From an uncultured bacterium (lineage in GTDB: Bacteria > Patescibacteriota > Minisyncoccia > Phycocordibacterales > Phycocordibacteraceae): a DNA stretch of 64,000 nucleotides. The notes under the pieces are model-generated. The model searched no databases. It saw nothing but the letters and a program-made list of their open reading frames with translations, and was not told the origin of the DNA. The translations under genes and the position numbers were made by a program. Positions 2,137 to 60,892 of this stretch are shown piece by piece. Positions within the stretch are counted from its first letter, which is position 1. The number at the start of each line of letters is the position of its first letter. The DNA lies in NCBI GenBank assembly GCA_903825105.1, contig CAIJZI010000007.1, positions 23,178-87,177 on the forward strand, in the 5' to 3' direction.

Positions 2137-3171
2137 TCACTTCGGATACTTCTGTGCGACCGCGGCATACGCCGCGCGCGACATATTTGAAATAATCGTG
2201 TCTGCCGTTTTTACATCCTTCGCGCTCGTCATCACACAGAGGAGATACGGGTGCGATGGATAATAAATAATGCCGCAGTCAGAGAGCTCGACGCCCGTGG
2301 CGACATTATTTTGAGATAGAACATGCTCGCCATATTTGTGCGCGACGACCGTTCCCTCTGGCACACCTGCGACGAGACCATCAGCGAAGGTCGCCTGCGA
2401 CAAGAGTTTCATCGCCTGCTCTGAACTCTCGGGCGAGAGATAGGTCGCATTATAGAGGACACGGAAGAAGAGCCCGAAGGTGCGCGCAGAAATTTGATAA
2501 TTTTGAGAATCGTCTCCCGGATTTTGGATCCCGAGCGCGACATACACCTGATTCAAAAATTCTGAATTAAGATTCGCGAGGAGCGAGAATGTCGCACCAT
2601 TATCTGAATCGACAACCATCTTATTGATGAGATCTTGTACCGAATAACTATGCCCCGCGACGAGTTCAGACGGCGCCACGAACGGCTCTTTCGGTAAAAC
2701 ACTCGGGTTGTAGTCAATTGTTTTTAAAAAGAGTGACGGATCTTGTTCCATCTGTTTGTAATACGCGATCAAGGTCGGCACCTTGAGAAGACTCGCCGGA
2801 TAATAGGTGTCATTCTGATTTATGCCGATCCACCTGCCCGCGTCCAGATCGCGGAAGTAGACTGCCGCGCGCGTCGCGTCACCACTTTTCACCACAGCAT
2901 CAATAATCGTTTGGAAAGAATTATTTAATGGAATGTAATCACCGAGGAGTGTCGCTTCTGGGGTGTGATAGGCGAGGAGTGGGTGCACAAGCGTGTATGG
3001 TGTTCCCTTTTCTTCAATCGGCGCGAATGATTGTTTGATTGAATCCGAAACAGAGTCACCTGCCAATTTGCCAAAAAAATATCCAGCGATACCTCCGACG
3101 ATTAATCCACCCGCGACGAGAGCCGCGAAGGTTAAAAACTTTTTAGATTTCCATTTTGCCAATATATTCAT
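2137..3171 (-). CDS. membrane-anchored class A beta-lactamase-like serine hydrolase (penicillin-binding fold)
   Basis: SxxK (YPASLLKV), SDN (VVDSDNGAT) and KxG (HKYGEH) motifs; N-terminal TM anchor (FLTFAALVAGGLIVGGIAGYFF); likely start MNILAKW. Confidence 0.55.
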   Translation of the reverse strand: MNILAKWKSKKFLTFAALVAGGLIVGGIAGYFFGKLAGDSVSDSIKQSFAPIEEKGTPYTLVHPLLAYHTPEATLLGDYIPLNNSFQTIIDAVVKSGDATRAAVYFRDLDAGRWIGINQNDTYYPASLLKVPTLIAYYKQMEQDPSLFLKTIDYNPSVLPKEPFVAPSELVAGHSYSVQDLINKMVVDSDNGATFSLLANLNSEFLNQVYVALGIQNPGDDSQNYQISARTFGLFFRVLYNATYLSPESSEQAMKLLSQATFADGLVAGVPEGTVVAHKYGEHVLSQNNVATGVELSDCGIIYYPSHPYLLCVMTSAKDVKTADTIISNMSRAAYAAVAQKYPK

Positions 3172-3272
3172 ACTCCAATAATAACCCGACGGAACCGCCC
3201 TAAACAAAGTGTTACACACCGCGTAGTAAGGGTTGGGAGAGCCATATTATTACTTTATCCTCATTATTACGC

Positions 3273-5024
3273 ATGTCTTTTTCTAAAATTTTAAATACCC
3301 TCAAAAACGCGTGGCATTCTGTCTGGTTGTATGCGATGAGTCATAAAATAATCGCGACGATCGCGGTCATTATTATTTTAGTCGGCGGATATTATGGCTA
3401 CAAGACACTCACTTCTTCGACAACGACGAGTTATATAACTTCTTCTGTCGCTTCGAGCACGATCGTCTCAACCTTGACCGAGACAGGCCAAGTGAGCGCC
3501 TCACAACAGATTTCCCTCTCGCCAAAATCTTCGGGCGAAGTGATTGGCGTGTATGTGAAGCCTGGCGACGCGGTGTATGCCGGCCAGCTCGTCGCACAAC
3601 TTGATGCCACCGATGCGCGGCAATCACTTCAAAATGCCGAGCTCGCGCTTAAGAATGCAGAAATCACTTATGCTCAAACCACAGCGACCTCGACGCTCTC
3701 GCTCAATCTGCTTCAAGCTCAAAACGCTGTCACAAATGCAAACATCTCTCTTCAAAAGACACACGACAGCATCTATTCCTCTCTCGCGAGCACCTATAAC
3801 GATTTTTCAACCATCGTAACGGGGATCGACGGCGTGCTCCACAATTCTGATTCTGCCGGTCGCTCGAATCAAGAAAATGTTGATGCGTATTCTGACATTG
3901 TTTCTTCACACGACGACAATATTCTGATGTATAAAAATTCTGCAGAGACTTCGTATACTGCCGCGCTCGCGGCGTACAACAGCGGACTCGCCACCTATAA
4001 AGCAGTCAGCGGTACCACCGCTTCAAACGACGATCTCGTCGCCCTCGCGAAGACGACTTATGCCACTGCACAAATAATCGCCGAAGCAGTAAAAAATTCT
4101 CACGACTTTTATGACCGCGTGAATACTGATTATTCTCTTTATAAAAATCTCGGTTCTTCTTCGACAGTTTCTAACCTCCTTTCTTCGATCAATTCATACA
4201 CCTCGCTCGTTTCAACAAACTTGAACAATGCACTGACCGTCCAGACCGACATTGTCTCGGCAGAACAGTCGCTAGCCCAAGCTAAGAACGCGCTCGAGTC
4301 GAGCGCGCAGGGTTCGAATGCGCTCACCGTTCAATCTGCCACTCTTTCACTTCAAGAAGCGAAGGATGCGGTGACCACCGCACAAGAAAATCTCGCGAAC
4401 TATTCTGTCGTCGCACCATTCGCGGGAACAATCGCTTCTGTCGGCGTGCAGAAATATGATCAGGCTAGCAACAATACATCGGTCGCGACGCTCGTGAGCT
4501 ACAACAAGATCGCGACACTCTCTGTTTCTGAAGCAGACGAGGTGAATATTAAACAAGGACAGAAAGCGATGCTCACCTTCGACGCTCTTCCTGATGTGAC
4601 CATCGCCGGCACCGTCGCATCTATTTCTAGCGCGGGGAGCGTTTCTTCTGGAGTCGTCTCCTACAGCGTCGATGTTTCGCTCGACACCGCAAATAGCGAT
4701 ATTAAGCCGGGGATGTCTGTCGATGCCGACATTATTACCGCGACAGCAGACGGCATCGCTGTGCCAAATAGTGCGATTAAGACTTCGGGCAATATAAATT
4801 ATGTTCTCGTTATGTCAGCGGCAACGCCGACAAAAGTCCCGGTCACTATTGGCATCACTGACGGCACGAACACCATCGTCACGAGCGGGTTAACTGGTAG
4901 CGAGCAGGTTGTGACGAAGACGGTCACGAGTTCTTCTTCATCAACTTCATCATCTGCAACAAAAACTACATCATCAAGCACAAATAGGAGCGGCCCTCCA
5001 GGAGGAATAATGATGGGATTATAA
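3273..5024 (+). CDS. efflux membrane-fusion (periplasmic adaptor) protein, HlyD/MacA family, with Ser/Thr-rich C-terminal tail
   Basis: N-terminal TM, coiled-coil and beta-barrel adaptor architecture (..VIGVYVKPGDAVYAGQLVAQLD..); directly upstream of MacB-like ATPase and permease. Confidence 0.65.
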   Translation: MSFSKILNTLKNAWHSVWLYAMSHKIIATIAVIIILVGGYYGYKTLTSSTTTSYITSSVASSTIVSTLTETGQVSASQQISLSPKSSGEVIGVYVKPGDAVYAGQLVAQLDATDARQSLQNAELALKNAEITYAQTTATSTLSLNLLQAQNAVTNANISLQKTHDSIYSSLASTYNDFSTIVTGIDGVLHNSDSAGRSNQENVDAYSDIVSSHDDNILMYKNSAETSYTAALAAYNSGLATYKAVSGTTASNDDLVALAKTTYATAQIIAEAVKNSHDFYDRVNTDYSLYKNLGSSSTVSNLLSSINSYTSLVSTNLNNALTVQTDIVSAEQSLAQAKNALESSAQGSNALTVQSATLSLQEAKDAVTTAQENLANYSVVAPFAGTIASVGVQKYDQASNNTSVATLVSYNKIATLSVSEADEVNIKQGQKAMLTFDALPDVTIAGTVASISSAGSVSSGVVSYSVDVSLDTANSDIKPGMSVDADIITATADGIAVPNSAIKTSGNINYVLVMSAATPTKVPVTIGITDGTNTIVTSGLTGSEQVVTKTVTSSSSSTSSSATKTTSSSTNRSGPPGGIMMGL

Positions 5025-5031
5025 AAATAAA

Positions 5032-5754
5032 ATGATTGAGATTAAAAACATTCACAAAGTGTATGGTTCGGGAGCAGAAGCCTTTACCGCACTCAACAAT
5101 ATCTCGTTCTCGATTGACGAAGGCGAATTCGTCGCGATTATGGGCCCTTCGGGGAGTGGTAAGTCAACCTTGATGCACATTCTCGGCTGTCTCGATACGC
5201 CAACCTCTGGCACCTATAAGCTCGACAACAAAGATGTCTCGACGATGACCGATGACGAGCTCGCTGATATTCGAAAGGATAAAATTGGTTTCGTCTTCCA
5301 AGCATTCAACCTGCTCCCGCGCACCACAGTGCTGCGCAATGTCGTCCTACCGCTCGTCTACGCCGGAGTGCCGCGCGAAGAGCGCGAGAAGCGCGCGATC
5401 GAATCGCTCGTCGCCGCAGGATTAACAAAAGAACATTTCACTCACCTTTCGAATCAAATATCCGGCGGACAGATCCAGCGCGTCGCGATCGCACGAGCGC
5501 TGGTCAACGATCCGTCGCTTATTCTCGCCGACGAACCAACAGGCAACCTCGACAGCCGCACGAGTCTTATCGTTCTCGAGACACTTCAAGAATTAAATAG
5601 AAAGCACGGGAGAACGATTGTCCTCATCACGCACGAGCCAGACATCGCCGAACATGCTGATCGCATTATTAAACTCCGCGACGGCGACATCGTCTCTGAT
5701 GAAAAAAATCATTCAGTGCGTAACGCAGAAAAAGAAGGAAAACTTTATGAATAA
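5032..5754 (+). CDS. ABC transporter ATP-binding protein (MacB/LolD-like)
   Basis: Walker [10 protein letters not shown], signature LSGGQ, Walker [12 protein letters not shown]. Confidence 0.85.
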
Positions 5755-7098: not shown

Positions 7099-7506
7099 AT
7101 GAAAAATAAAAATATAATGATCACGGGAGTTGTAGCTCTTATTATCGGCGTTAGTCTCGGCTACTTCGGCGGGAACGCTCTTCACCCAGCGGCAGCGACA
7201 CCAACACGCGGGAACTTTTCTGGCATGATGGGCGGTGCGGGACGAGCCGGTGGCAATGGGCTTCTCTCAGGCACGGTCGCGGCAAAGGATTCTGACAGCA
7301 TCACTATCGACACGAAGGACGGTAGCTCGCACATTGTTCTCCTCACGCCAAACACGACATTTCAAAAGAGCGTGAGCGGCACAGAGAGCGATGTGGCTAC
7401 CGGCTCGACGATTATTGTCTCGGGCACGACCAATAGCGATGGCTCGGTCTCTGCCACTTCGATCCAATTGCGCCCCGCGATGCCTCCTGCTACAGTACAA
7501 AAATGA
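7099..7506 (+). CDS. hypothetical secreted/membrane-anchored protein (Gly/Ser/Thr-rich)
   Basis: N-terminal TM/signal (ITGVVALIIGVSLGYF); no family recognised. Confidence 0.4.
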   Translation: MKNKNIMITGVVALIIGVSLGYFGGNALHPAAATPTRGNFSGMMGGAGRAGGNGLLSGTVAAKDSDSITIDTKDGSSHIVLLTPNTTFQKSVSGTESDVATGSTIIVSGTTNSDGSVSATSIQLRPAMPPATVQK

Positions 7507-7590
7507 AACGCGCATTTACCATATTTATCGTTCTTATTCTCGCCTTCGGCATGATCGTAATGTTCTTCCCTGCTCTCTTCGCGGGACATT
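7504..7590 (+). CDS. possible 28-aa single-TM peptide (MKRAFTIFIVLILAFGMIVMFFPALFAGH)
   Basis: ATGA overlap with upstream stop; hydrophobic; followed by terminator. Confidence 0.2.
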
Positions 7591-7616
7591 AGAGGTTCTG
7601 TTTAAAGTTTAAAAAA

Positions 7617-7646
7617 TGAGCAAGGGTAACCCTTGCTCATTTTTTG
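7617..7646 (+). terminator. rho-independent terminator with GGTAACC-core hairpin
   Basis: TGAGCAAGGG-TAA-CCCTTGCTCA followed by TTTTTT. Confidence 0.7.
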
Positions 7647-7703
7647 TCTCCAATTAATATCGCATAGTATAAAAAGAAACCGAGCCCATGGGGCTCGGTG
7701 AGA

Positions 7704-7768
7704 GAAACAAATCATCAGGAAGGAGGTGGGGAGGAAAAAGAATGAATGAAAACGGGATGATTTGTTTC
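7704..7768 (+). promoter_or_regulatory. 13-bp perfect-stem hairpin enclosing SD and start codon of small peptide ORF
   Basis: GAAACAAATCATC (7704-7716) pairs with GATGATTTGTTTC (7756-7768); loop carries AGGAAGGAGGTGGGGAGG SD and ATG 7742. Confidence 0.5.
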
Positions 7769-9043: not shown

Positions 9044-9079
9044 TCCCCTGTCTGCATAATTTGCAGACTTCGCGAAAAC

Positions 9080-9116
9080 AAAAGCGCTCGCCAAATGGCG
9101 AGCGCTTTTGTTTTCT
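9080..9116 (+). terminator. rho-independent terminator
   Basis: AAAAGCGCTCGCC-AAAT-GGCGAGCGCTTTT then GTTTTCT. Confidence 0.75.
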
Positions 9117-11092: not shown

Positions 11093-11677
11093 ATGCGCGT
11101 CATTACCTTCGATATTGAATCTATTTCTGACTCGGTGGTGCGCGGGCATATCGATGTACGCGAACAAGAACTCACCGTCGTCGCGATTCACGATTCTGAA
11201 ACAGGAGAATATTCTGCCTATTTTAAAGATGAGCTACCTCAGCTCTGGCCGATTATCGAGCGCGCCGATATGCTCGTCGGATTCAATTCTGACTCATTCG
11301 ATATTCCGCTTCTGAATCGCTATTATCCCGGAGACTTGTCGAGTATTCGTTCACTCGACCTCTTAAGCGAAGTACAAAAAGCGCTCGGTCGCCGTATCCG
11401 CCTCCAGTCAATCGCCGAGGGCACTTTGGGTAAAAGTAAGTCAGGCGACGGGCTCACCGCAGGAGAATGGTGGAAGAGTGGCGACCGAGAAAAGGTGCGA
11501 GAATATTGTATCGACGATGTGCGCATCACGAGAGCAATTTATGAATACGCGCTCAAAAATGGCGTATTAAAATATAAAGACCTGCGCGATATCCGCGATA
11601 TTAAAATAGACACCTCGAGCTGGAGCGCCGAGCCAGAACAAAAACCGGCGGTTATGACACACGCACTTCAATTATGA
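11093..11677 (+). CDS. DEDD-family 3'-5' exonuclease
   Basis: Exo I FDIES, Exo II FNSDSFDIPLL, Exo III YCIDDVRITRAIYEY. Confidence 0.6.
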   Translation: MRVITFDIESISDSVVRGHIDVREQELTVVAIHDSETGEYSAYFKDELPQLWPIIERADMLVGFNSDSFDIPLLNRYYPGDLSSIRSLDLLSEVQKALGRRIRLQSIAEGTLGKSKSGDGLTAGEWWKSGDREKVREYCIDDVRITRAIYEYALKNGVLKYKDLRDIRDIKIDTSSWSAEPEQKPAVMTHALQL

Positions 11678-12363
11678 AAACTTCATTCACTGTCCCTATC
11701 GCTATTATTATCGGAGGCATTGTTGTCGCTGGATCAGTTTATTTTTCAATAAAAAAATCGGTCTTCCCGATTTCAAATAATGGGAACCCTGCACTTGTGC
11801 GCCCAGTGAGCGCAAATGATCATCTCCTCGGCAACCCAGCAGCGCCCGTCGTCGTGGTTGAGTATGCAGACTTTGACTGTGAATTTTGTAAAAACTTCAG
11901 CGACACGATGAACCAGATAATCGCGAATGAAGGAGCGAACGGACGAGTCGCTTGGGTCTATCGCGAATTCCCTCTTATCGAGATCCATCCAAACGCCTTC
12001 TCGAGCGCAGAAGCCGCAGAGTGCGCTGCGAAGACTGCGGGGAATGACGCGTTCTGGAAATTTGCTGATGCCCTATTCGCCAGCCAACCAGCCGACCCTT
12101 CGCAGTATGGAACGCTCGCTGCTTCAGCAGGAATCAGGGGCAACGATTTCGCCACCTGTTTTGAAAACGCATCAACAACAGTCGCCACACGCATCAACGC
12201 TGATCGACAAAACGCCCTCGCTTCTGGCGCCGTCGGCACGCCATATTCACTCATTCTCGTAAACGGCCAAACACCTGTCGTAATGACCGGTGCGTATTCT
12301 TATGATGCAGTGAAGCAACTTATTGATCAGGCGCTCGCGACGGTAAACGAAAACGGTAAGTAA
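11674..12363 (+). CDS. DsbA-family thiol:disulfide oxidoreductase, membrane-anchored
   Basis: N-terminal TM, thioredoxin CxxC active site (DCEFCK). Confidence 0.7.
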   Translation: MKTSFTVPIAIIIGGIVVAGSVYFSIKKSVFPISNNGNPALVRPVSANDHLLGNPAAPVVVVEYADFDCEFCKNFSDTMNQIIANEGANGRVAWVYREFPLIEIHPNAFSSAEAAECAAKTAGNDAFWKFADALFASQPADPSQYGTLAASAGIRGNDFATCFENASTTVATRINADRQNALASGAVGTPYSLILVNGQTPVVMTGAYSYDAVKQLIDQALATVNENGK

Positions 12364-12448
12364 TTTTCGGGACTCCACGGCGCGAGGACTGAACAATTTT
12401 TCAGCAGAAAAATTGTGTGCCCGAAAATTACTTACCGCTTTCGTCATC
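12345..12448. repeat. long palindromic element (family B-related) spanning the convergent 3' ends of two genes and supplying both stop codons
   Basis: ACGAAA[AG]CGGTAAGTAATTTTCGGG on both strands (24/25 nt) encodes ..NGK* for dsbA-like and ..SGK* for the nuclease; centre ACGGCGCGAGG..AATTTTTCAGCAGAAAAATT shared with dnaE insertion. Confidence 0.6.
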
Positions 12449-13291
12449 GATTAATCCGAGTCGATAAATATCAAAAGAGTTTTCGCCTTCGAACATATCG
12501 GAGGGATTGGGCAGGAAAATGCGCTGGCGAGAGATCTCTGCTGTCGCATCGTTAATCAAACGCTCGAAGACTTTAAAATCTTCGGCACATTTTTTAAAAT
12601 CAATTTCATATTTTCGAAGCTGTTTCTTCCCATCGCTATTCTTCGTCTTTTTACATTCGTAGACAATAAACTTCCGCACCGGCTTCTCGAAGAGTGCGCT
12701 CACGGTGTAATAATTAAACACCGCCTGCATAATAAAAAGCGTTTTTGTCGCACCGCCCTTACTAAAAGCGGCGACAAATTTATGATCGACAATATCGACT
12801 GCGCCCTTCTCGCTTCGCGACTCGACGACAAGATCTGAAATCGCTTTAATCGGCAGGTCGAGCCCTCGAACGGCGACCGTGCCTTTTACTTCAACACCAA
12901 GCACCTTATGCCGCGGGGGCTTGGCGAGATAAAATGAAATCACTTGAAGATAGTCCTTTTCCATCGAAGCTCTTTTTTCTTTTTTTGCTGCGCGCGTTTT
13001 GGCTCGGCCAAAATCGATATCAGAATCAGAAATCGCGCGGATATAGTCGAGCCCTTTATTAATTGAACCTTCTTTTTTTTCTTTGTACTTCGCAGCGTTA
13101 GCTGCATATGAATTTCTGTAAAAGTTTTCAAGTGCCAAATGCCCCGCGCTGCCGACAATCGACGCTGGCGTTCTAGGTGTGTCATAAATCTTCTCGACAT
13201 AGCGCTTATGCCACGCAAGCGGATTGCGTAAAAATGCCATTAAACTCGAATGGCTCCAGTACTTTATTGGTGGTTTCCTTTTCCCTGTCAT
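12428..13291 (-). CDS. PD-(D/E)XK (RecB/Cas4-like fold) nuclease-family protein, no Fe-S cysteines
   Basis: ..DLVVESRSEKGAVDIVDHKF.. fits D..(D/E)xK core; family assignment tentative. Confidence 0.4.
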   Translation of the reverse strand: MTGKRKPPIKYWSHSSLMAFLRNPLAWHKRYVEKIYDTPRTPASIVGSAGHLALENFYRNSYAANAAKYKEKKEGSINKGLDYIRAISDSDIDFGRAKTRAAKKEKRASMEKDYLQVISFYLAKPPRHKVLGVEVKGTVAVRGLDLPIKAISDLVVESRSEKGAVDIVDHKFVAAFSKGGATKTLFIMQAVFNYYTVSALFEKPVRKFIVYECKKTKNSDGKKQLRKYEIDFKKCAEDFKVFERLINDATAEISRQRIFLPNPSDMFEGENSFDIYRLGLIDDESGK

Positions 13292-13314
13292 CCGTACAGT
13301 ATAGCAACGCAAAA

Positions 13315-13365
13315 GTAGCAAGGGTAACCCTTACTACTTTTCACTTGGAAGTCGGACTTCCAAGT
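13315..13365 (-). terminator. twin hairpins downstream of rpoD: CTTGGAAG..CTTCCAAG hairpin plus GGTAACC-loop hairpin
   Basis: ACTTGGAAGTCGGACTTCCAAGT (13343-13365, abuts rpoD stop) and GTAGCAAGGGTAACCCTTACTAC (13315-13337). Confidence 0.55.
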
Positions 13366-16945: not shown

Positions 16946-16951
16946 AACCAA

Positions 16952-17022
16952 AACGGCGCGAGGTAACCCTCGCGCCGTTTCTCTTTTGACTTGGAGGTCC
17001 GACCTCCAAGTTTTTTGTTTTT
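16952..17022. terminator. bidirectional twin terminator hairpins (GGTAACC-loop and CTTGGAGG..CCTCCAAG) between small ORF and rpoC
   Basis: AACGGCGCGAGG-TAA-CCCTCGCGCCGTT and CTTGGAGGTCCGACCTCCAAG followed by TTTTTTGTTTTT. Confidence 0.65.
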
Positions 17023-25431: not shown

Positions 25432-26154
25432 TTACTTCTCCATCCTCCATTTGTCAATATTCGCATGATGGCCGGTTTGGAGGACTTTTGGCACGCGATA
25501 ATTTTTACCTTTAAATAGAATAGTTTCGGGTCGCGTGTAGACCGCGCTCGAGGCGATGCGGAGCTCTTCAACCGATGTATCTTTGCCGAGAACCCCTGGC
25601 AGGCGGCGCGTAACAGCGTCGATGATCGCGAGCGCCGGCACTTCTCCGCCAGTATAAGTCGCCTCGCCAACAGCAAATTCTTTGACTGTTGCGAGTGTTT
25701 TCAAAATTTTCTTCGCGCGTTCGTCGATGCCTTCATAACGACCGCAGACGAGAATCACATTCTCGTATTCCGCGAGCGCGTCAGCATCTTTATTGGTGAA
25801 TTGTTTGGCGCTGGGCGAGAACCATACGACCAATGCCTTTCGTCCATGTTTGGACTTACGAAATCCCTCATCAGATGATGGATTTCGTAAGTCCCTCATA
25901 CGGCCCAATGCTTTCTGGACAGCCTTAATCACAGGCTCAGCCTGCATCACCATCCCTGGACCACCGCCATAGGGCTTGTCATCTACTTTTTTATAACTTC
26001 CTTCTGGCCCTTTAATAAAATCACGTGGATTCTGATATTTTATTGAAATCTTTTTTTCTTTTTGCGCACGACCAATGATTGATGTGTTCAGGTACGCATC
26101 GCAGGCTTCTGGAAACAATGTAATGAGATTAAATTTCATCGACCACCTGATCAA
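25432..26154 (-). CDS. trmD: tRNA (guanine37-N1)-methyltransferase TrmD with in-frame palindromic-element insertion
   Basis: MKFNLITLFPE N-terminus, SPOUT knot motifs; 15-aa insert DLRNPSSDEGFRKSK encoded by palindrome 25852-25894. Confidence 0.85.
   Translation of the reverse strand: MIRWSMKFNLITLFPEACDAYLNTSIIGRAQKEKKISIKYQNPRDFIKGPEGSYKKVDDKPYGGGPGMVMQAEPVIKAVQKALGRMRDLRNPSSDEGFRKSKHGRKALVVWFSPSAKQFTNKDADALAEYENVILVCGRYEGIDERAKKILKTLATVKEFAVGEATYTGGEVPALAIIDAVTRRLPGVLGKDTSVEELRIASSAVYTRPETILFKGKNYRVPKVLQTGHHANIDKWRMEK
25852..25894. repeat. palindromic element family A inside trmD coding sequence
   Basis: GGACTTACGAAATCC-CTCATCAGATGAT-GGATTTCGTAAGTCC; arms perfectly complementary; preceded by CATGTTTGG as in other copies. 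Confidence 0.8.
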
Positions 26155-29820: not shown

Positions 29821-29843
29821 AGTGAGAGACTAAAGCTCTCACT
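29821..29843. repeat. hairpin motif AGTGAGAG-NCTAAAG-CTCTCAC, copy 1 of 3
   Basis: AGTGAGAGACTAAAGCTCTCACT; other copies at 32547-32568 and 33072-33093. Confidence 0.6.
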
Positions 29844-35523: not shown

Positions 35524-36111
35524 TTAAATCAAATGTAAAAACGACTTGCGATGAATCGCGCAGGGGCCGTATTTTTTAAGCATTTCATAATGCAGTTTGG
35601 TGCCATAACCTTTGTGCTTCTCGAAGCCGTATTCAGGATATTTGATCGCGAGCTCGAGCATTAAACGATCGCGCAGAACCTTCGCCACGATAGAGGCGAG
35701 CGAGATAATCGGCACGAGGTCATCGCCGTTGATTATGGTCTCCTGTGAATATTCTTTTGGCGCATGTAACCCGCCATCGAGTAAAATGATGGATTTCGTA
35801 AACCCATCATTCGGCGCGAGTTTGTTCACACCGCGCGCGAGCGCTTTATTTATCGCCGGGACAATTCCCTCTTTATCAATCATTTCTGCACTCTCGAATT
35901 CAACAGCGAAACGCGCGTCGCCAAGGGCGACGCGTGCTTCCAGCATTTCAAAAATCTCCTCTCTTTTCTTCTCTGATAGCTTTTTAGAATCCGCGACACC
36001 CTTGAATTCTTTCATTACATCAAATCCCTCTGCCACTACCGCTACCCCAACAGCCACCGGCCCCGCGAGTGGTCCTCGCCCTGCCTCGTCAACTCCAATT
36101 AGAAACTTCAT
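35524..36111 (-). CDS. rnhB: ribonuclease HII
   Basis: GVDEAGRGPLAGPV active-site motif. Confidence 0.85.
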   Translation of the reverse strand: MKFLIGVDEAGRGPLAGPVAVGVAVVAEGFDVMKEFKGVADSKKLSEKKREEIFEMLEARVALGDARFAVEFESAEMIDKEGIVPAINKALARGVNKLAPNDGFTKSIILLDGGLHAPKEYSQETIINGDDLVPIISLASIVAKVLRDRLMLELAIKYPEYGFEKHKGYGTKLHYEMLKKYGPCAIHRKSFLHLI

Positions 36112-36133: not shown

Positions 36134-39100
36134 ATGGCTTCACGATTTATCCATCTCCACGCCCACAGCCACTACTCCTTCCTCCAGGCATTGCCGAAGA
36201 TTGATGAATTGGTAGAAAAAGCGAAGAAAGAAGGAATGGAGGCGATCGCGCTCACCGACGCCGGCAATATGCACGGCGCGATCGAATTCTACAAAGCCGC
36301 GATGAAGGCAGAGATTAAACCGATTCTCGGCGTCGACGCCTATCTCGCCCACCATTCGCGACACGACAAAGACGGCGACAGCTCGAAGCGTTCGCGCATC
36401 GTCCTCCTCGCAGAAAATAATGCGGGATATAAAAACTTACTCGAGCTTGTGACCAAGTCCTGGACTGAAGGCTTCTCTGATAAGCCGCGAATGGATAAAG
36501 AATTATTGCGCGAATATAGCGGCGGCATCATAGCGATTATTCCCTCGTTTGCTGGCGACATCGCACAAATGCTTCGCGCTGGTGACGAGAACGGCGCAGC
36601 TGCTGCGCTCGCAGAATTTAAAAATATTTTTGGAGAAAATAATGTGTTTCTAGAAATCACCCATCACCCCAAAGTGGCTGGCCACGAAGAATTACAGAAA
36701 AAAATAATCGCCCTCGCCCACTCGAGCGACACACCACTTGTCGCCCAGCACGATGTCTATTATCTGAGCCCTAATGATCGTGAAGCGACCGAGACGATGC
36801 GCCGTATCCAACAGGGCTCCCGCGGTAGAAATGAAGATGAGGACTTCTCTTTTATAAATGAATCAACGGCTAAAAAACTTTTTAAAGAAACTCCAGAGGC
36901 GATAGATAATTCAAAACTTATCGCAGACCGATGCTCGGTCGAACTCACGCTGGGAAAATTTGTCTTCCCACAATTCCCTCTTCCTCCGGGAAAAACGGCT
37001 GACGAGGTACTCCGCGAATTAAGCTTAAAAGGATTACAAAAACGCGGGCTCGCCGGAAGAGCCGATGTTATGGAACGCTTTGAATATGAGCTCGGCGTTA
37101 TTAAGATGAAGGGTTACGCCGCCTATTTCCTCGTCGTCGAAGACCTCGTGCGCTTCGCGCGCGAAAATAATATTTACACCAACATTCGAGGCTCGGTCGC
37201 CGGATCTTTGATTACTTATGTATTACAAATCACCAAAGTCGATCCCCTCGAATATAAAATCCCGTTCGAACGATTCCTTAACCCAGAACGCCCCTCAGCT
37301 CCCGATATTGATATGGACTTTGCCGACAATCGTCGCGACGAAGTAATCGAATACGCACGCAGTAAATATGGCAAGGATCATGTCGCGCAGATCGGTACCT
37401 TCGGCACAATGATGGCGCGAGCAGCAGTGCGCGATGTCGCACGCGCGCTCGGCCACTCCTATAGCACTGGAGATCGCATCGCCAAACTTATCCCGATGGG
37501 GTCACAAGGATTCCCGATGACGATCGACAAAGCGCTCAAGCTCGAACCAGAGTTAAAAACGCTCTACCAAGAAGACGACACTTCGCACGAAGTAATCGAT
37601 CTTGCGAAAAGTATCGAGGGCTGTGTGCGACATGTCGGTGTGCACGCCGCGGGCGTTGTGATCGCGCCAACGCCAGTGGTCGAGTGGACGCCGATTCAGC
37701 CCGATCCAAAAGGCACCGGGAAAATTATCACTCAATATGATATGTACTCCGTCGGTGAAGATGGCGTAGGGCTTACCAAATTCGATTTCCTCGGTATTAA
37801 AAATCTCTCGATTCTCGCTGATGTCGTCTCGCGCGTAGAAAAAAGTCGCAATATAAAATTCGACATCGAGGCGATTCCTCTCGATGATAAAAAGACCTTT
37901 GAGATGCTCGCGCGCGGCGAGACTGAAGGAACCTTCCAGCTCAACGGTTCGGGTATGACGCGCTGGCTCAAAGAGCTACGACCAACCACGATTCACGACA
38001 TCAACGCGATGGTCGCCTTATATCGCCCGGGCCCTATGGAAACGATTCCCCAATATATCGAACGAAAAAATAATCCAAAAATGATTCGCTATGTCGACGA
38101 GCGAATGAAAGAGTATCTCGATTTTTCTTACGGGCTGATTGTGTACCAAGACGATGTCCTCCTCACAGCGATTAAACTCGCCGGCTATTCGTGGCTTCAA
38201 GCAGACGCACTGCGTAAAGCGATGGGTAAAAAAATTCCAGCAGTTATGCAGAAGGAAAAAGAAAAACTGCTCACTGGCTTTGCTGAATACGGAAAACTGA
38301 AGAAAGAAACGGCGGACAAACTCTGGTCACTCATCGAGCCCTTCGCGGCGTACGGATTCGGCAAGGCACACGCCGCCTCCTACGGTCGTGTGTCGTATCA
38401 AACAGCGTATATGAAAGCAAATTATCCGGTCGAATACCTCGCCGCACTTCTCACCGCTGACTCGGGCGACACAGAACAAATTTCTATTTTCGTCGCCGAA
38501 GCGAAAAGAATGGGCATCACGATTCTCCCGCCCGATGTCAACGAAAGTGGCACAGACTTCACGGTGATTAAAAACGACGAGAGTGAACTTTTTGAGGAAG
38601 CTCCGGAGCGCGACGGCGCGAGGCCGAGCAAATTTTCAGCAGAAAATTATGCGTCTTCCGAAAAAAGCTCACCGAGTCGTGGCTTTATCCGATTCGGCCT
38701 CTCTTCAATTAAAAACTTCGGCGACGGCATCTCTGAAGCAATTATCGCTGAACGAGAAAAGAATGGCGCTTTCACTTCTCTTTCTGACTTTTTATCTCGC
38801 ATTGGTTCAAAGAACCTAAATCGCAAATCACTCGAATCACTTATTAAGTGTGGAGCACTCGATTCATTAAGCAATCAGATAGGCGGTAGAGGTACCCTCC
38901 TCGAAAATATCGAGAAGCTTCTCACTTTTCATCGCGAGTCAACCGCATCAGCACCACAAGATTCTCTCTTCGCCACCTTCGCGCCACCGTCACTCGTCCT
39001 GCCTGAAGGAAAGCAGATATCCCTTTTTGAAAAATTAATGTGGGAAAAAGAGCTGCTCGGCATTTATGTCTCTGGACACCCACTCGACGCTCACGAAAAG

Positions 39101-39400
39101 TTTGTAGAAAAAACGAAATTCCCTATTTCAAAAATAAAAGAGAATCCAAAAAATGGCATGCCGATTATTCTACCCGTTTTAATTATTTCTCTTCGCGCCT
39201 TTCTCACCAAGAGCGGCGAGAAAATGGCATTTATAAAACTCGAGGACAAAACAGATTCGATCGAAGCGGTCATATTCCCAAAGTTGTTCAAAGAACATTC
39301 GCTCATCCTCGCGCCGGGGAACTGTATTTTGGTAAAAGGAAAAGTCTCGATTAGAAATGGCGAGACAACGCTCGCGATCGACGAACTCAAACCGATTTAA
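36134..39400 (+). CDS. dnaE: DNA polymerase III alpha subunit with a low-complexity in-frame insertion carrying family-B repeat modules
   Basis: PHP domain (HLHAHSHYS), polymerase core, OB fold; ~35-aa insert ..ELFEEAPERDGARPSKFSAENYASSEKSSPSRGF.. between DFTV and IRFGL. Confidence 0.9.
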   Translation: MASRFIHLHAHSHYSFLQALPKIDELVEKAKKEGMEAIALTDAGNMHGAIEFYKAAMKAEIKPILGVDAYLAHHSRHDKDGDSSKRSRIVLLAENNAGYKNLLELVTKSWTEGFSDKPRMDKELLREYSGGIIAIIPSFAGDIAQMLRAGDENGAAAALAEFKNIFGENNVFLEITHHPKVAGHEELQKKIIALAHSSDTPLVAQHDVYYLSPNDREATETMRRIQQGSRGRNEDEDFSFINESTAKKLFKETPEAIDNSKLIADRCSVELTLGKFVFPQFPLPPGKTADEVLRELSLKGLQKRGLAGRADVMERFEYELGVIKMKGYAAYFLVVEDLVRFARENNIYTNIRGSVAGSLITYVLQITKVDPLEYKIPFERFLNPERPSAPDIDMDFADNRRDEVIEYARSKYGKDHVAQIGTFGTMMARAAVRDVARALGHSYSTGDRIAKLIPMGSQGFPMTIDKALKLEPELKTLYQEDDTSHEVIDLAKSIEGCVRHVGVHAAGVVIAPTPVVEWTPIQPDPKGTGKIITQYDMYSVGEDGVGLTKFDFLGIKNLSILADVVSRVEKSRNIKFDIEAIPLDDKKTFEMLARGETEGTFQLNGSGMTRWLKELRPTTIHDINAMVALYRPGPMETIPQYIERKNNPKMIRYVDERMKEYLDFSYGLIVYQDDVLLTAIKLAGYSWLQADALRKAMGKKIPAVMQKEKEKLLTGFAEYGKLKKETADKLWSLIEPFAAYGFGKAHAASYGRVSYQTAYMKANYPVEYLAALLTADSGDTEQISIFVAEAKRMGITILPPDVNESGTDFTVIKNDESELFEEAPERDGARPSKFSAENYASSEKSSPSRGFIRFGLSSIKNFGDGISEAIIAEREKNGAFTSLSDFLSRIGSKNLNRKSLESLIKCGALDSLSNQIGGRGTLLENIEKLLTFHRESTASAPQDSLFATFAPPSLVLPEGKQISLFEKLMWEKELLGIYVSGHPLDAHEKFVEKTKFPISKIKENPKNGMPIILPVLIISLRAFLTKSGEKMAFIKLEDKTDSIEAVIFPKLFKEHSLILAPGNCILVKGKVSIRNGETTLAIDELKPI
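38590..38690. repeat. family-B-related repeat modules inside dnaE
   Basis: CCGGAGCGCGACGGCGCGAGGCCGAGCAAATTTTCAGCAGAAAATTATG shares ~40 nt pattern with intergenic 12385-12418. Confidence 0.5.
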
Positions 39401-41197: not shown

Positions 41198-41217
41198 TGA
41201 ATTGTGTAAAAGAAAAA

Positions 41218-41250
41218 GTAGCAAAGGTAACCCTTGCTACTTTTTCTTTT
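41218..41250. terminator. GGTAACC-loop terminator hairpin between thrS and gyrB
   Basis: GTAGCAAAGG-TAA-CCCTTGCTAC then TTTTTCTTTT. Confidence 0.7.
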
Positions 41251-47638: not shown

Positions 47639-47683
47639 TGGATTTCGTCATCCCATCACTAATGATGGGTTTACGAAATCCAT
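47639..47683. repeat. palindromic element family A, intergenic copy (imperfect)
   Basis: GGATTTCGTCATCCC-ATCACTAATGAT-GGGTTTACGAAATCC preceded by ATGTTTGG as in the coding copies. Confidence 0.7.
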
Positions 47684-47690
47684 CACATTC

Positions 47691-48389
47691 CTACGATGTT
47701 TGGCCTTTTTTAAATGCTGAAGTAAGTTCAGCGAGAATAAGCTTCACTGTATCGCGAGATGCATCATTCGCGACAATCGGATACTGCGCATCGCGCACAT
47801 CGCAGTCAGAGCTCATAAGAGCGATGACTGGGATACCTGCGTCCTTCGCTTCCTTTACCGCGTATTTCTCGTGTTTCGAGTCAATAACGAGAAGAGCGTC
47901 AGGGCGCTTCGCGAGTGTCGTGATCCCATCGAGGCGCTGCTCGAGTCGTTTCTTCTCGCGATCGAGATACACGAGTTCAAGCTTTGTATGCTGTTTTGCT
48001 CGAATGCCTGCAGCAGACTTTTCAGAGAGTTCTGCGAGACGATCGATACGCTTCTTAATTTCTACCCAGTTCGAGATCGTCCCACCGAGCCAACGAGTCG
48101 CGACATAAGGAGCGGCGATTTCTTGAGCAGCCTTTTTAACCAGGTCGGCTATTTCGACTTTTCCACCAACAAAAAGCACTGTTTTCCCTTCTTTTGCGAG
48201 AGTAGACATTACTGCCTTCGCCGCGTCGAGCTGTTCGGCGGTTTGTACCAAATCGATGATTTCACTGCGGCCCTTGGTACCCATGACAAAAGGCTTCATC
48301 GACGGGTGTCGACGGCTTTTTACCTGCGCGAAATGAGCCCCTGCGCCAAAGAGGTTTTTTAATTCTGCCGAATCAGTTACTGATGTCAT
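47691..48389 (-). CDS. rpsB: 30S ribosomal protein S2
   Basis: conserved S2 N-terminal and central motifs; upstream of tsf. Confidence 0.9.
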
Positions 48390-60028: not shown

Positions 60029-60892
60029 TCAGATGTAAAGAGCTTTTATAAACTTTTCACCCTCTTCTTTTGCTGGAACTTTCCCGTGCCAACGGTAGTC
60101 ATTTTCTATTTCTGTAACGCCTTTACCAGGGATAGTGCGCGCGACAATAAGCGTGGGCTTATCTTGTACTGATTTTGCCTTTTCAACAGCATCGATAAAA
60201 ATCTGTATGTCATTCCCGTCTATTTCAATCACATGCCAATTAAATGCCCTATATTTATCTGCGAGCGATTCTAACGGCATCACTTTTTCTGTCGTTCCGT
60301 CAATTTGAATATTGTTACGATCTATAATCGCAGTGAGGTTTGATAATTTATTTTTCCCGATGAACATTACTGCCTCCCAGGTATTTCCTTCTTCCTGCTC
60401 GCCATCGCTCATCACGCAGTACACCCTCCGCCCATGTTTGGACTTCGTAAATCCATCATCAGATGATGGATTTACGAAGTCCCTCAATACAAGTGCCATT
60501 CCTGCTGCTTGTGAGAGACCTTCGCCCAAAGGGCCAGAGGTAGTTTCGAGACCTGGTAATCGAATGCGCTCTGGATGCCCTTGCAGCCTGCTGCCAAATT
60601 TTCTTAAAGTTAAACATTCTTCAACAGGAAAATAGCCTGCGTGTGCCATAGCCGCATAAAGAACAGGACAAATGTGCCCATTACTTAAAACAAGCCGATC
60701 GCGCTCCTCCCACTCTGGGTTTTTTGGATCATGTTTCAGAATGTGAAAATAAAGAGCGGTAAAAATATCTGCCATGCCAAGCGCGCCTGCAGTGTGCCCG
60801 CTCCCCGCTTCAACAAGCATTCTGATAATCGTCTCGCGAATCATGCGCGCCTTTTCTTTGAGCGCGGTGATTTCTTCTTCAGTACATTTCAT
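60029..60892 (-). CDS. tktA: transketolase, N-terminal subunit (split enzyme) with in-frame palindromic-element insertion
   Basis: TPP-binding ..GSGHTAGALG.., ..SDGEQEEG..; 17-aa insert RDFVNPSSDDGFTKSKH encoded by palindrome 60440-60482. Confidence 0.85.
   Translation of the reverse strand: MKCTEEEITALKEKARMIRETIIRMLVEAGSGHTAGALGMADIFTALYFHILKHDPKNPEWEERDRLVLSNGHICPVLYAAMAHAGYFPVEECLTLRKFGSRLQGHPERIRLPGLETTSGPLGEGLSQAAGMALVLRDFVNPSSDDGFTKSKHGRRVYCVMSDGEQEEGNTWEAVMFIGKNKLSNLTAIIDRNNIQIDGTTEKVMPLESLADKYRAFNWHVIEIDGNDIQIFIDAVEKAKSVQDKPTLIVARTIPGKGVTEIENDYRWHGKVPAKEEGEKFIKALYI
60440..60482. repeat. palindromic element family A inside tktA coding sequence (perfect 43-bp palindrome)
   Basis: GGACTTCGTAAATCC-ATCATCAGATGAT-GGATTTACGAAGTCC, preceded by CATGTTTGG. 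Confidence 0.85.

Follow-up and report, generated by a model that had tools for sequence, protein, structure and literature searches.

Repeats and mobile DNA are generally considered scarce in the very small genomes of the Candidate Phyla Radiation (CPR, Patescibacteria). Among the described repeats closest to the element reported here, Rickettsia palindromic elements (RPE) are palindromic repeats of ~100-150 nt that can lie in frame in essential genes, where translation turns them into an additional surface peptide of conserved sequence (PMC10969869). Correia elements have conserved terminal inverted repeats of ~26 bp, a TA target duplication and an IHF site (PMC10969869), and REP sequences are repeats in which the conserved unit is the palindrome, marked by a GTAG or CGTC tag (PMC3733652). 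In this study, we analyzed a 64,000-nt stretch of contig CAIJZI010000007.1 from an uncultured CPR bacterium (hereafter the window), in which a long palindrome lies between two convergent genes, one encoding a DsbA-like protein and the other a nuclease of the PD-(D/E)XK family. Judged by its protein homologues, the bacterium is Paceibacterota or Candidatus Kaiserbacteria-like. The palindrome is a worn member of an apparently undescribed family of ~100-base hairpin repeats of Paceibacterota (CPR). We consider it fairly probable that this 98-nt sequence is a decayed copy of a small non-coding family that acts as a non-autonomous mobile element of the miniature inverted-repeat transposable element (MITE) or RPE type. 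In the literature on palindromic repeats or MITEs in CPR/Patescibacteria, no description of the family was found.

The DsbA-like gene (thioredoxin fold, DsbA/Thioredoxin_4, identified from its open reading frame (ORF) and Pfam) encodes 229 aa at 11674..12363 on the + strand, and the nuclease gene occupies 12428..13321 on the - strand, its ORF being 297 aa from a TTG start and 270 aa in public gene calls. The two stop codons are 64 nt apart. By repeat search, the arms of the palindrome, which form its outer stem P1, were located at 12347..12371 (ACGAAAACGGTAAGTAATTTTCGGG) and 12420..12444 on the + strand. These 25-nt arms are 24/25 complementary (96%) with 48 nt between them, and a 25-mer arm occurred 0 times at up to 3 mismatches in 100 dinucleotide shuffles of the window, which agrees with the first-pass annotation of this DNA in recognizing one long inverted repeat between convergent genes. 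In the frame of the DsbA-like gene, the left arm reads (N)ENGK and TAA (12361-12363), with GAA AAC GGT AAG TAA as the last codons, and the minus strand of the right arm reads (D)ESGK and TAA (12428-12430), the last codons of the nuclease gene being GAA AGC GGT AAG TAA. Since the arms are inverted copies of each other, both proteins end in E-(N/S)-G-K. That annotation had credited the arms with the last six codons plus TAA of each gene; the ends and stop codons of both genes do lie in the arms, and strictly each arm supplies 2 nt of the N or D codon, four codons and TAA. The tail of the DsbA-like protein, ..ATVNENGK, is outside the Pfam domain, which ends at residue 218 of 229, and that of the nuclease is ..LGLIDDESGK. 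The 12372..12419 stretch between the arms contains an inner hairpin at the centre (12393-12402 with 12407-12416, 10 bp, 100% complementary). When folded as RNA, the palindrome region gave -49.7 kcal/mol (z = -6.4) for the + strand and -55.4 kcal/mol (z = -6.7) for the - strand. An assembly artefact as the source of the palindrome was ruled out, since the 181-nt locus is 100% identical in 7 independent contigs of different ENA and Logan assemblies.

The first-pass annotation had further proposed that an inserted element remodelled the 3' ends of both genes. When the C-termini were compared with those of orthologues without the repeat, the residues at the ends of the window's proteins were not shared, and in the element-less relatives L010-L012 the genes share an overlap of 34-46 nt and their proteins have other terminal residues. 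The proteins of L010 and L011 are 85-87% identical to those of the window, and their genes have no intergenic DNA and overlap by 46 and 34 nt, respectively. L012 has the same junction sequence (e.g., ...TCTACGGTTTCGTCATCAACC...) and tail, and by manual reading the window contains ~95 extra nt (12345-12439) relative to L012, between ACGGT and TTCGTCATC. In these three loci the DsbA-like protein ends in ..STLSSSTSPSL and the nuclease in ..DDE(T/S)VESA or ..IDESA. Among 120 homologues of each protein, the NENGK and ESGK tails were restricted to the window organism. Many remoter relatives have overlap-type DsbA tails, ..NPSR or ..NPSL, which arise when the conserved ..YRLGLVDD of the nuclease is read on the opposite strand; as such tails are common in outgroups, the overlap is the deeper ancestral state. 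Because the closest relatives that lack the element have overlapping genes with different tails, the sequence comparison supports an insertion that would have remodelled both C-termini.

The same junction takes other forms in further relatives. The sister contig L009 (82% identical) carries the element, its DsbA-like protein ending in ..TVTESEK and a stop, followed by TAATTTTCGAGGCTCCGCAGCGTGACGACGCGAGGACTGAGCA; the contig stops within the element, and its core is fuller than that of the window copy, with the P2 positions (see below) kept. L001 retains a homologue of the left arm (..TVNETNR, stop, TAATTTTC), which abuts an amino-acid permease gene of 483 aa at 2223-3674, between the DsbA-like and nuclease genes. 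At the orthologous junction of L033 (2664-2710), a perfect palindrome with 22-bp arms, TCCACGAGGTGACACCTTACGG-TT(T)-CCGTAAGGTGTCACCTCGTGGA, is present without the core, and its arms give both proteins the tail ..STR and a stop. In the neighbor-joining (NJ) tree of the DsbA-like protein, the window and L009 group together as sister to L001 with L010 and L011, (L001, (L010, L011)); the nuclease NJ tree differs, and bootstraps are not displayed for these trees. As a separate observation, several nuclease homologues (P0137, P0146, P0147, P0151, P0160 and others) share a recurrent C-terminal extension, ..L(A/T)(S/D)EP(E/K)NGRAPGR and a stop, as if in other lineages this gene end had also been extended into a repeat, of another kind.

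We found ~25 copies of the family on ~20 Paceibacterota contigs. A search with a core pattern returned 9 loci in 9 GTDB species genomes, all CPR metagenome-assembled genomes (MAGs), and a second core pattern matched 8 metagenome contigs; the titled records with the core are all Paceibacterota or Minisyncoccia MAGs, or a MAG labelled Saccharibacteria. Core searches of phages, plasmids and IMG/VR gave 0 matches. The core of ~57 nt is almost invariant, (G)CTCCGCAGCGCGACGGCGCGAGG-CC-GAGCAAATTTTCAGCAGAAAATTATGCGT, and contains two hairpins, P2 (GCGC-GACG-GCGC) and P3 (GCAAATTTTC-AGCA-GAAAATT(A)TGC). It is enclosed by P1, a stem of 15-35 bp whose sequence is specific to each copy and nevertheless complementary. 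An alignment of 16 copies (A3) was constructed, from which the window's intergenic copy was left out, and a covariance model, R1, was built from it. In this alignment 83% of cells pair, compared with 69% in column shuffles (0/500 reached 83%) and 29-55% with slid partners, and both sides change in 17 of the 18 P1 pairs. The P2 pair 31-36 goes from C-G to U-A twice, and compensatory swaps occur in P3 of L031, L014 (second copy) and L028 (second copy), e.g., AAAAAATC/GATTTTT.

R1 matched the window's intergenic element at 12353..12446 on the + strand with 65.8 bits (E=1.8e-18) and the dnaE copy with 100.2 bits, and with filters off it revealed no third copy in the window; on its - strand the intergenic element scored only 17.5 bits. 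The intergenic copy is degenerate: 8 P2 model positions are deleted from its core, so that P2 is not intact, whereas P3 still pairs, with two compensatory changes from the consensus of the family (ACAATTTTTC/GAAAAATTGT). Applied to the fetched loci, R1 detected second copies in L014, L016 and L028 and truncated copies at the contig ends of L009 and L024. Rfam 15 at E<=10 gave, as best matches to the element, miRNA and snoRNA models (12-18 bits, E>=0.18), and at the gathering threshold the 8 other loci yielded a single tRNA only. The conserved nucleotides do not fit a hammerhead, a twister or domain V of group II introns, and these candidates were rejected.

With respect to genes, the stop codon of an ORF of at least 150 aa lies inside the element or within ~12 nt of it in 10 of the 17 copies outside dnaE, two of these being between convergent gene pairs; therefore, capping of gene ends is typical of the family. 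The orientation of the copies to adjacent genes is mixed (sense, antisense and convergent). Individual copies show further peculiarities. A nested insertion of ~60 nt, itself a hairpin, is located in the P2 loop of a copy in L021 (~4990-5050), and in DnaE of P0247 and P0263 the insert is longer by some residues at the place of this nested insertion. In L014, an ORF for a predicted membrane protein of 157 aa (7279-7752) reads through a whole copy (7622-7725) in a different frame (..SFAARRREKERIFSRKLRDPGE..), and a second, inverted copy is found 420 nt away, just after a PilC/GspF-like gene. The L009 contig ends inside the element, and gene callers run ORFs into or through it.

The first-pass annotation had also noted that the centre of the palindrome recurs in dnaE. 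This recurrence was borne out: ACGGCGCGAGG occurs again at 38613, the second centre motif TTTTCAGCAGAAAA recurs with 3 mismatches at 38630-38649, and the local alignment of the palindrome with dnaE scored 51, compared with at most 31 in 30 shuffles. The similarity spans the whole element beyond the centre. The dnaE gene (Pol III alpha, 1088 aa) occupies 36134..39400 on the + strand, and the second, well-preserved copy lies at 38581..38682 on the + strand, in frame as ..SELFEEAPERDGARPSKFSAENYASSEKSSPSR.., within an imperfect palindrome around the same core that extends to ~38573-38690 (CTTTTTGAGGAAG ... CTTCCGAAAAAAG). The segment reads as ..KNDESELFEEAPERDGARPSKFSAENYASSEKSSPSRGF.. and the ORF is intact, from which we infer that the copy is probably translated. 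Its ~38 extra residues map between residues 884 and 887 of Thermus aquaticus Pol III alpha, a tight loop, placing the copy in a surface loop of DnaE. Many of 120 DnaE fragments have 4-8 residues between FTV(I/V) and IRFGL (e.g., FTVISNETIRFGL), and others are longer by 33-47 residues, among which the peptide (E/G)APQRDGAR(PSKFSAENYAS or TEQFSSKKIAY) is conserved. These empty and filled forms are interleaved in the NJ tree of the flanking sequence.

At the DNA level, we compared the empty dnaE site of L030 with the filled sites of the window, L017, L031 and L032. Each filled site consists of the core and arms of ~25-32 nt, which vary between genomes and pair within each, often with CCGAGG on both arms, which produces a tandem G.A mismatch; the empty site has ~12 nt where the filled sites hold ~30-nt arms. 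When the window was compared with L017 and L031, identity at third codon positions was 17-18 of 19 in the core and only 35-50% in the 88 flanking codons. Considering that third positions of the core are kept while the flanks are saturated, the core is constrained (or refreshed) at the nucleotide level and not as a peptide. A phmmer search of 1.84 billion representatives with the 39-aa DnaE insert peptide matched only compositionally similar stretches in giant repeat proteins and a spurious 157-aa ORF that covers an intergenic copy; thus, it gave no evidence for in-frame copies in proteins besides DnaE. In L031 (1-1984), dnaE was called as two ORFs of 595 and 327 aa with a break ~120 nt upstream of the in-frame element; a frameshift, a genuine split of the gene or a fault in the assembly may explain it.

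We also examined how copies are distributed among unrelated loci. L020 and L025 share a unit of ~89 nt, GTGCGATTTTTGAGG..core..CCTCAAAAATCGCAC, with two mismatches in otherwise unrelated loci, L014 and L016 share a unit of ~126 nt in loci that are likewise unrelated, and L015 and L026 have the core and inner arms in common at non-syntenic positions. Furthermore, the element is present in some relatives and absent in others at identical sites, namely the DsbA/nuclease junction and dnaE. Based on these near-identical units and on presence and absence at the same sites, the family behaves like a mobile element. Mobility is also indicated by the several loci with two copies, the nested insertion in L021 and the interleaving of empty and filled dnaE forms. 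P1 shows a strand bias, as its mismatches comprise 40 G.A/A.G and 6 C.T/T.C; a corresponding asymmetry of G.U over A.C wobbles was rejected, G.T (19) and A.C (16) being balanced, so that the bias is confined to G.A. Of the 17 copies, 14 fold more stably as the + strand than as the - strand. The mixed orientation of the copies speaks against a simple mRNA element acting in cis and is compatible with an intermediate that is single-stranded and strand-specific.

In the history that we favor, the DsbA-like and PD-(D/E)XK genes would ancestrally have overlapped tail to tail and a palindromic insertion would have separated them; each ORF now runs 4-5 codons into one arm and stops at that arm's TAA. 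The conserved centre, not the termini, would presumably be the recognized part of the element, and the relevant form may be a folded single strand, ssDNA or RNA, judging from the strand-biased excess of G.A in P1. At present, the likely effect at this locus would be neutral C-terminal tails and a strong predicted hairpin with which each of the two converging transcripts would end. As for target sites, both window targets contain ACGAAAC (empty dnaE site, AAACGAAACA; minus strand of the junction, GACGAAACC), and a target motif was rejected, as other copies do not end in ACGA...TCGT. GCGAG-like direct motifs flank the copies of one subfamily (L014, L016 and L028).

Several observations weigh against the favored explanation. 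At the loci examined, neither a consistent duplication of the target site nor conserved inverted repeats at the termini were found. No partner transposase was found either: at the few loci inspected, none adjoins or separates the copies, and in L014 and L016 the ORF within the inverted pair encodes the small membrane protein that reads through a copy. The copy number is low, with 2 in 64 kb. The DsbA and nuclease NJ trees give conflicting answers as to the primary or secondary nature of the empty sites in L010-L012, and the element may have been deleted secondarily in these loci. In addition, in orthologous copies (L023/L027, L018/L020 and the dnaE set) the core stays identical and the stems stay paired as their sequences diverge, and the third positions of the dnaE core are kept (17-18/19) against 35-50% in the flanks. 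Such conservation resembles the outcome of long-term purifying selection, acting on a nucleic-acid structure with a function, more than it does transposon junk.

Such selection is central to an explanation in which the family is a structured nucleic acid that functions for the host, its dispersal being due to occasional duplication; a module for RNA processing, stability or termination and a protein-binding ssDNA or RNA motif at the tip of a long stem are candidate functions. Its support comes from the same third positions in dnaE (17-18/19 versus 35-50%), the strong covariation of P1, which is also seen between orthologous copies, the tandem G.A mismatches that recur on one strand only, the steadier + strand fold in 14/17 copies, the P3 of the decayed window copy kept by compensatory changes, and the preference of copies for gene 3' ends. 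Nevertheless, we regard a host function as rather unlikely, in that the orientation to flanking genes is mixed, one copy lies within an essential ORF, at two loci some close relatives have the element and others do not, 8 P2 positions are missing from the window copy, and Rfam has no relevant match at E<=10. At the window locus, a terminator scan called no intrinsic terminator and no U-tract follows either arm, although the rules applied may not be those of CPR. A more specific proposal is tentative: the element would be a structured module under long-term purifying selection, with a fixed three-way-junction core of ~57 nt carried by a stem whose sequence is free except for conserved tandem G.A pairs, and a Paceibacterota enzyme or RNA-binding protein would read it as ssDNA or RNA. 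The element would either build or target palindromes at gene ends, and in dnaE it would have been kept in many lineages for its nucleic acid and not its peptide.

The core-less palindrome of L033 raises a different question, since it does the same job as the window element and the window arms may therefore pre-date the core. In a two-step origin, a simple palindrome would first have given both genes their tails and stops, and the core with short inner arms would have been inserted into its centre later. The perfect 22-bp arms and shared ..STR tails of L033 at the same junction are consistent with such an order, as are the near-identity of L020 and L025, which stops abruptly after ~89 nt while the locus-specific flanks beyond are still inverted repeats of 7-9 bp, and the presence in the window of several perfect palindromes of 19-21 bp with loops of 0-2 nt. 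Conversely, the arms of L033 are unrelated in sequence to those of the window, and no relative was found with the window's arms and no core; outer-arm 12-mers, sought in all loci as traces of a core-less version of the same palindrome, returned noise only. About 35 nt of each arm moves with the core between unrelated loci in the L014/L016 subfamily, and the ~12 nt of the empty dnaE site against ~30-nt arms in the filled sites indicates that arms can arrive with the element. We therefore hold the two-step origin to be possible, with low confidence. A purely local event would need no family at all, only a junction altered by template switching or inverted duplication and a centre gene-converted from dnaE. 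It would account for the outer ends of the arms (ACGAA on the left, TTCGT on the right), where part of the ancestral coding sequence of the nuclease is present along with an inverted copy, and for the likeness of the centre to dnaE. This event is highly improbable, given that ~25 copies on ~20 contigs share the core in many genomes and contexts and that the L009 core is fuller than that of the window and resembles a different dnaE subtype (ARTEQ).

The window contains several further families of short intergenic palindromes, such as GGACTTACGAAATCC..GGATTTCGTAAGTCC, AAAAGTAGCAAGGGT-a-ACCCTTGCTACTTTT, ACTTGGAAGT..ACTTCCAAGT and AGTGAGAGnCTAAAGCTCTCAC. They are located at 25852-25894, 60440-60482, 35780-35815 and 47661-47692; at 7611-7645, 13306-13342 and 41208-41250; at 13341, 16987, 24169 and 25231; at 29821, 32547 and 33072; at 9074-9115; and at 1494-1531. 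Some are perfect, with arms of 19-21 bp and loops of 0-2 nt, and 0 of the 7 long window palindromes tested overlapped the stop codon of an ORF of at least 120 aa. A hairpin at 16951-16980, AAACGGCGCGAGG-taac-CCTCGCGCCGTTT, lies just after a stop codon and contains the core 11-mer ACGGCGCGAGG, which together with its one-mismatch variants occurs 8 times in the window, compared with 1.7 expected. Between 28814 and 29818, a 48-nt sequence that ends in a stop codon, GCCGCCGC.CGCATCGCAGAAAAGGAATT.GATTTTGT.CC.GTGTAA, occurs in 3 copies spaced 579 and 378 nt apart, which suggests tandem paralogous small genes with a conserved C-terminus.

Taken together, the results offer a searchable family of small palindromic elements in the CPR radiation, in the form of a core consensus and a covariance model, with an unusual architecture of an invariant centre and freely covarying arms. 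The window provides a clean natural case in which an element un-overlaps two convergent genes and gives both a near-identical C-terminal tail, E-(N/S)-G-K, and a stop codon, as well as an RPE-like in-frame resident of a replicative polymerase. The nucleotide-level conservation inside a reading frame may mean that the folded single strand is read by some dedicated machinery or serves a specific function. There is also a practical effect, as a contig ends at the element (L009) and gene callers extend ORFs into it or through it.

The first-pass annotation had likened the palindrome to Correia and RPE elements, which is apt as an analogy for residence in frame and for a small inverted repeat at gene ends; membership among Correia elements did not hold. 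The functional resemblance to RPE lies in a palindromic repeat of similar size, in frame in dnaE, with a peptide conserved across genomes, APQRDGARPSKFSAENYAS, in a DnaE loop. The likeness is a functional one, as no relationship in sequence is known, and the host belongs to a phylum other than that of Rickettsia, for which reason membership in one of the RPE families is very unlikely. In addition, in-frame residence is confined here to dnaE while most copies are intergenic or at gene ends, and it is the centre that is conserved and the arms that vary. With Correia elements (CREE/NEMIS) and MITEs, the family shares a small, non-coding, dispersed unit with inverted-repeat ends, often at gene boundaries, the potential for strong transcript hairpins, and presence or absence between strains. 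The window element is not a Correia element. Its arms differ between copies and the termini are not conserved, its flanks, ..GGTAA|ACGAA.. and ..TTCGT|CATCG.., have no TA or other direct repeat, and it occurs in 2 copies in 64 kb of a Paceibacterota host, compared with more than 100 copies per genome in Neisseria. As a small, non-coding, multi-copy sequence with terminal inverted repeats it corresponds to a MITE in the generic sense, and it departs from classical MITEs in the conserved centre with variable, covarying arms, and from both Correia elements and MITEs in the low copy number and in that no parent insertion sequence was found at the loci examined.

REP sequences and REPINs, conserved palindromes of 20-40 bp that are linked to a RAYT, resemble the family in their association with extragenic palindromes at gene 3' ends, and differ from it in that the arms here vary, that there is no GTAG or CGTC tag, and that no RAYT or Y1 transposase adjoins the copies at the few loci inspected. 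The insertion sequence IS1397 inserts into REP loops, and some of the present copies are comparably flanked by locus-specific inverted repeats, as if they lay inside a pre-existing hairpin. The strand-specific fold suggests a single-stranded intermediate, as in HUH systems of the RAYT or IS200 type. Lastly, palindromes that overlap the stop codons of convergent genes, putative bidirectional terminators, have their counterpart in L033, which shows the same geometry as the window element; what sets the window element apart from such plain palindromes is its structured 48-nt centre, which belongs to a dispersed family.

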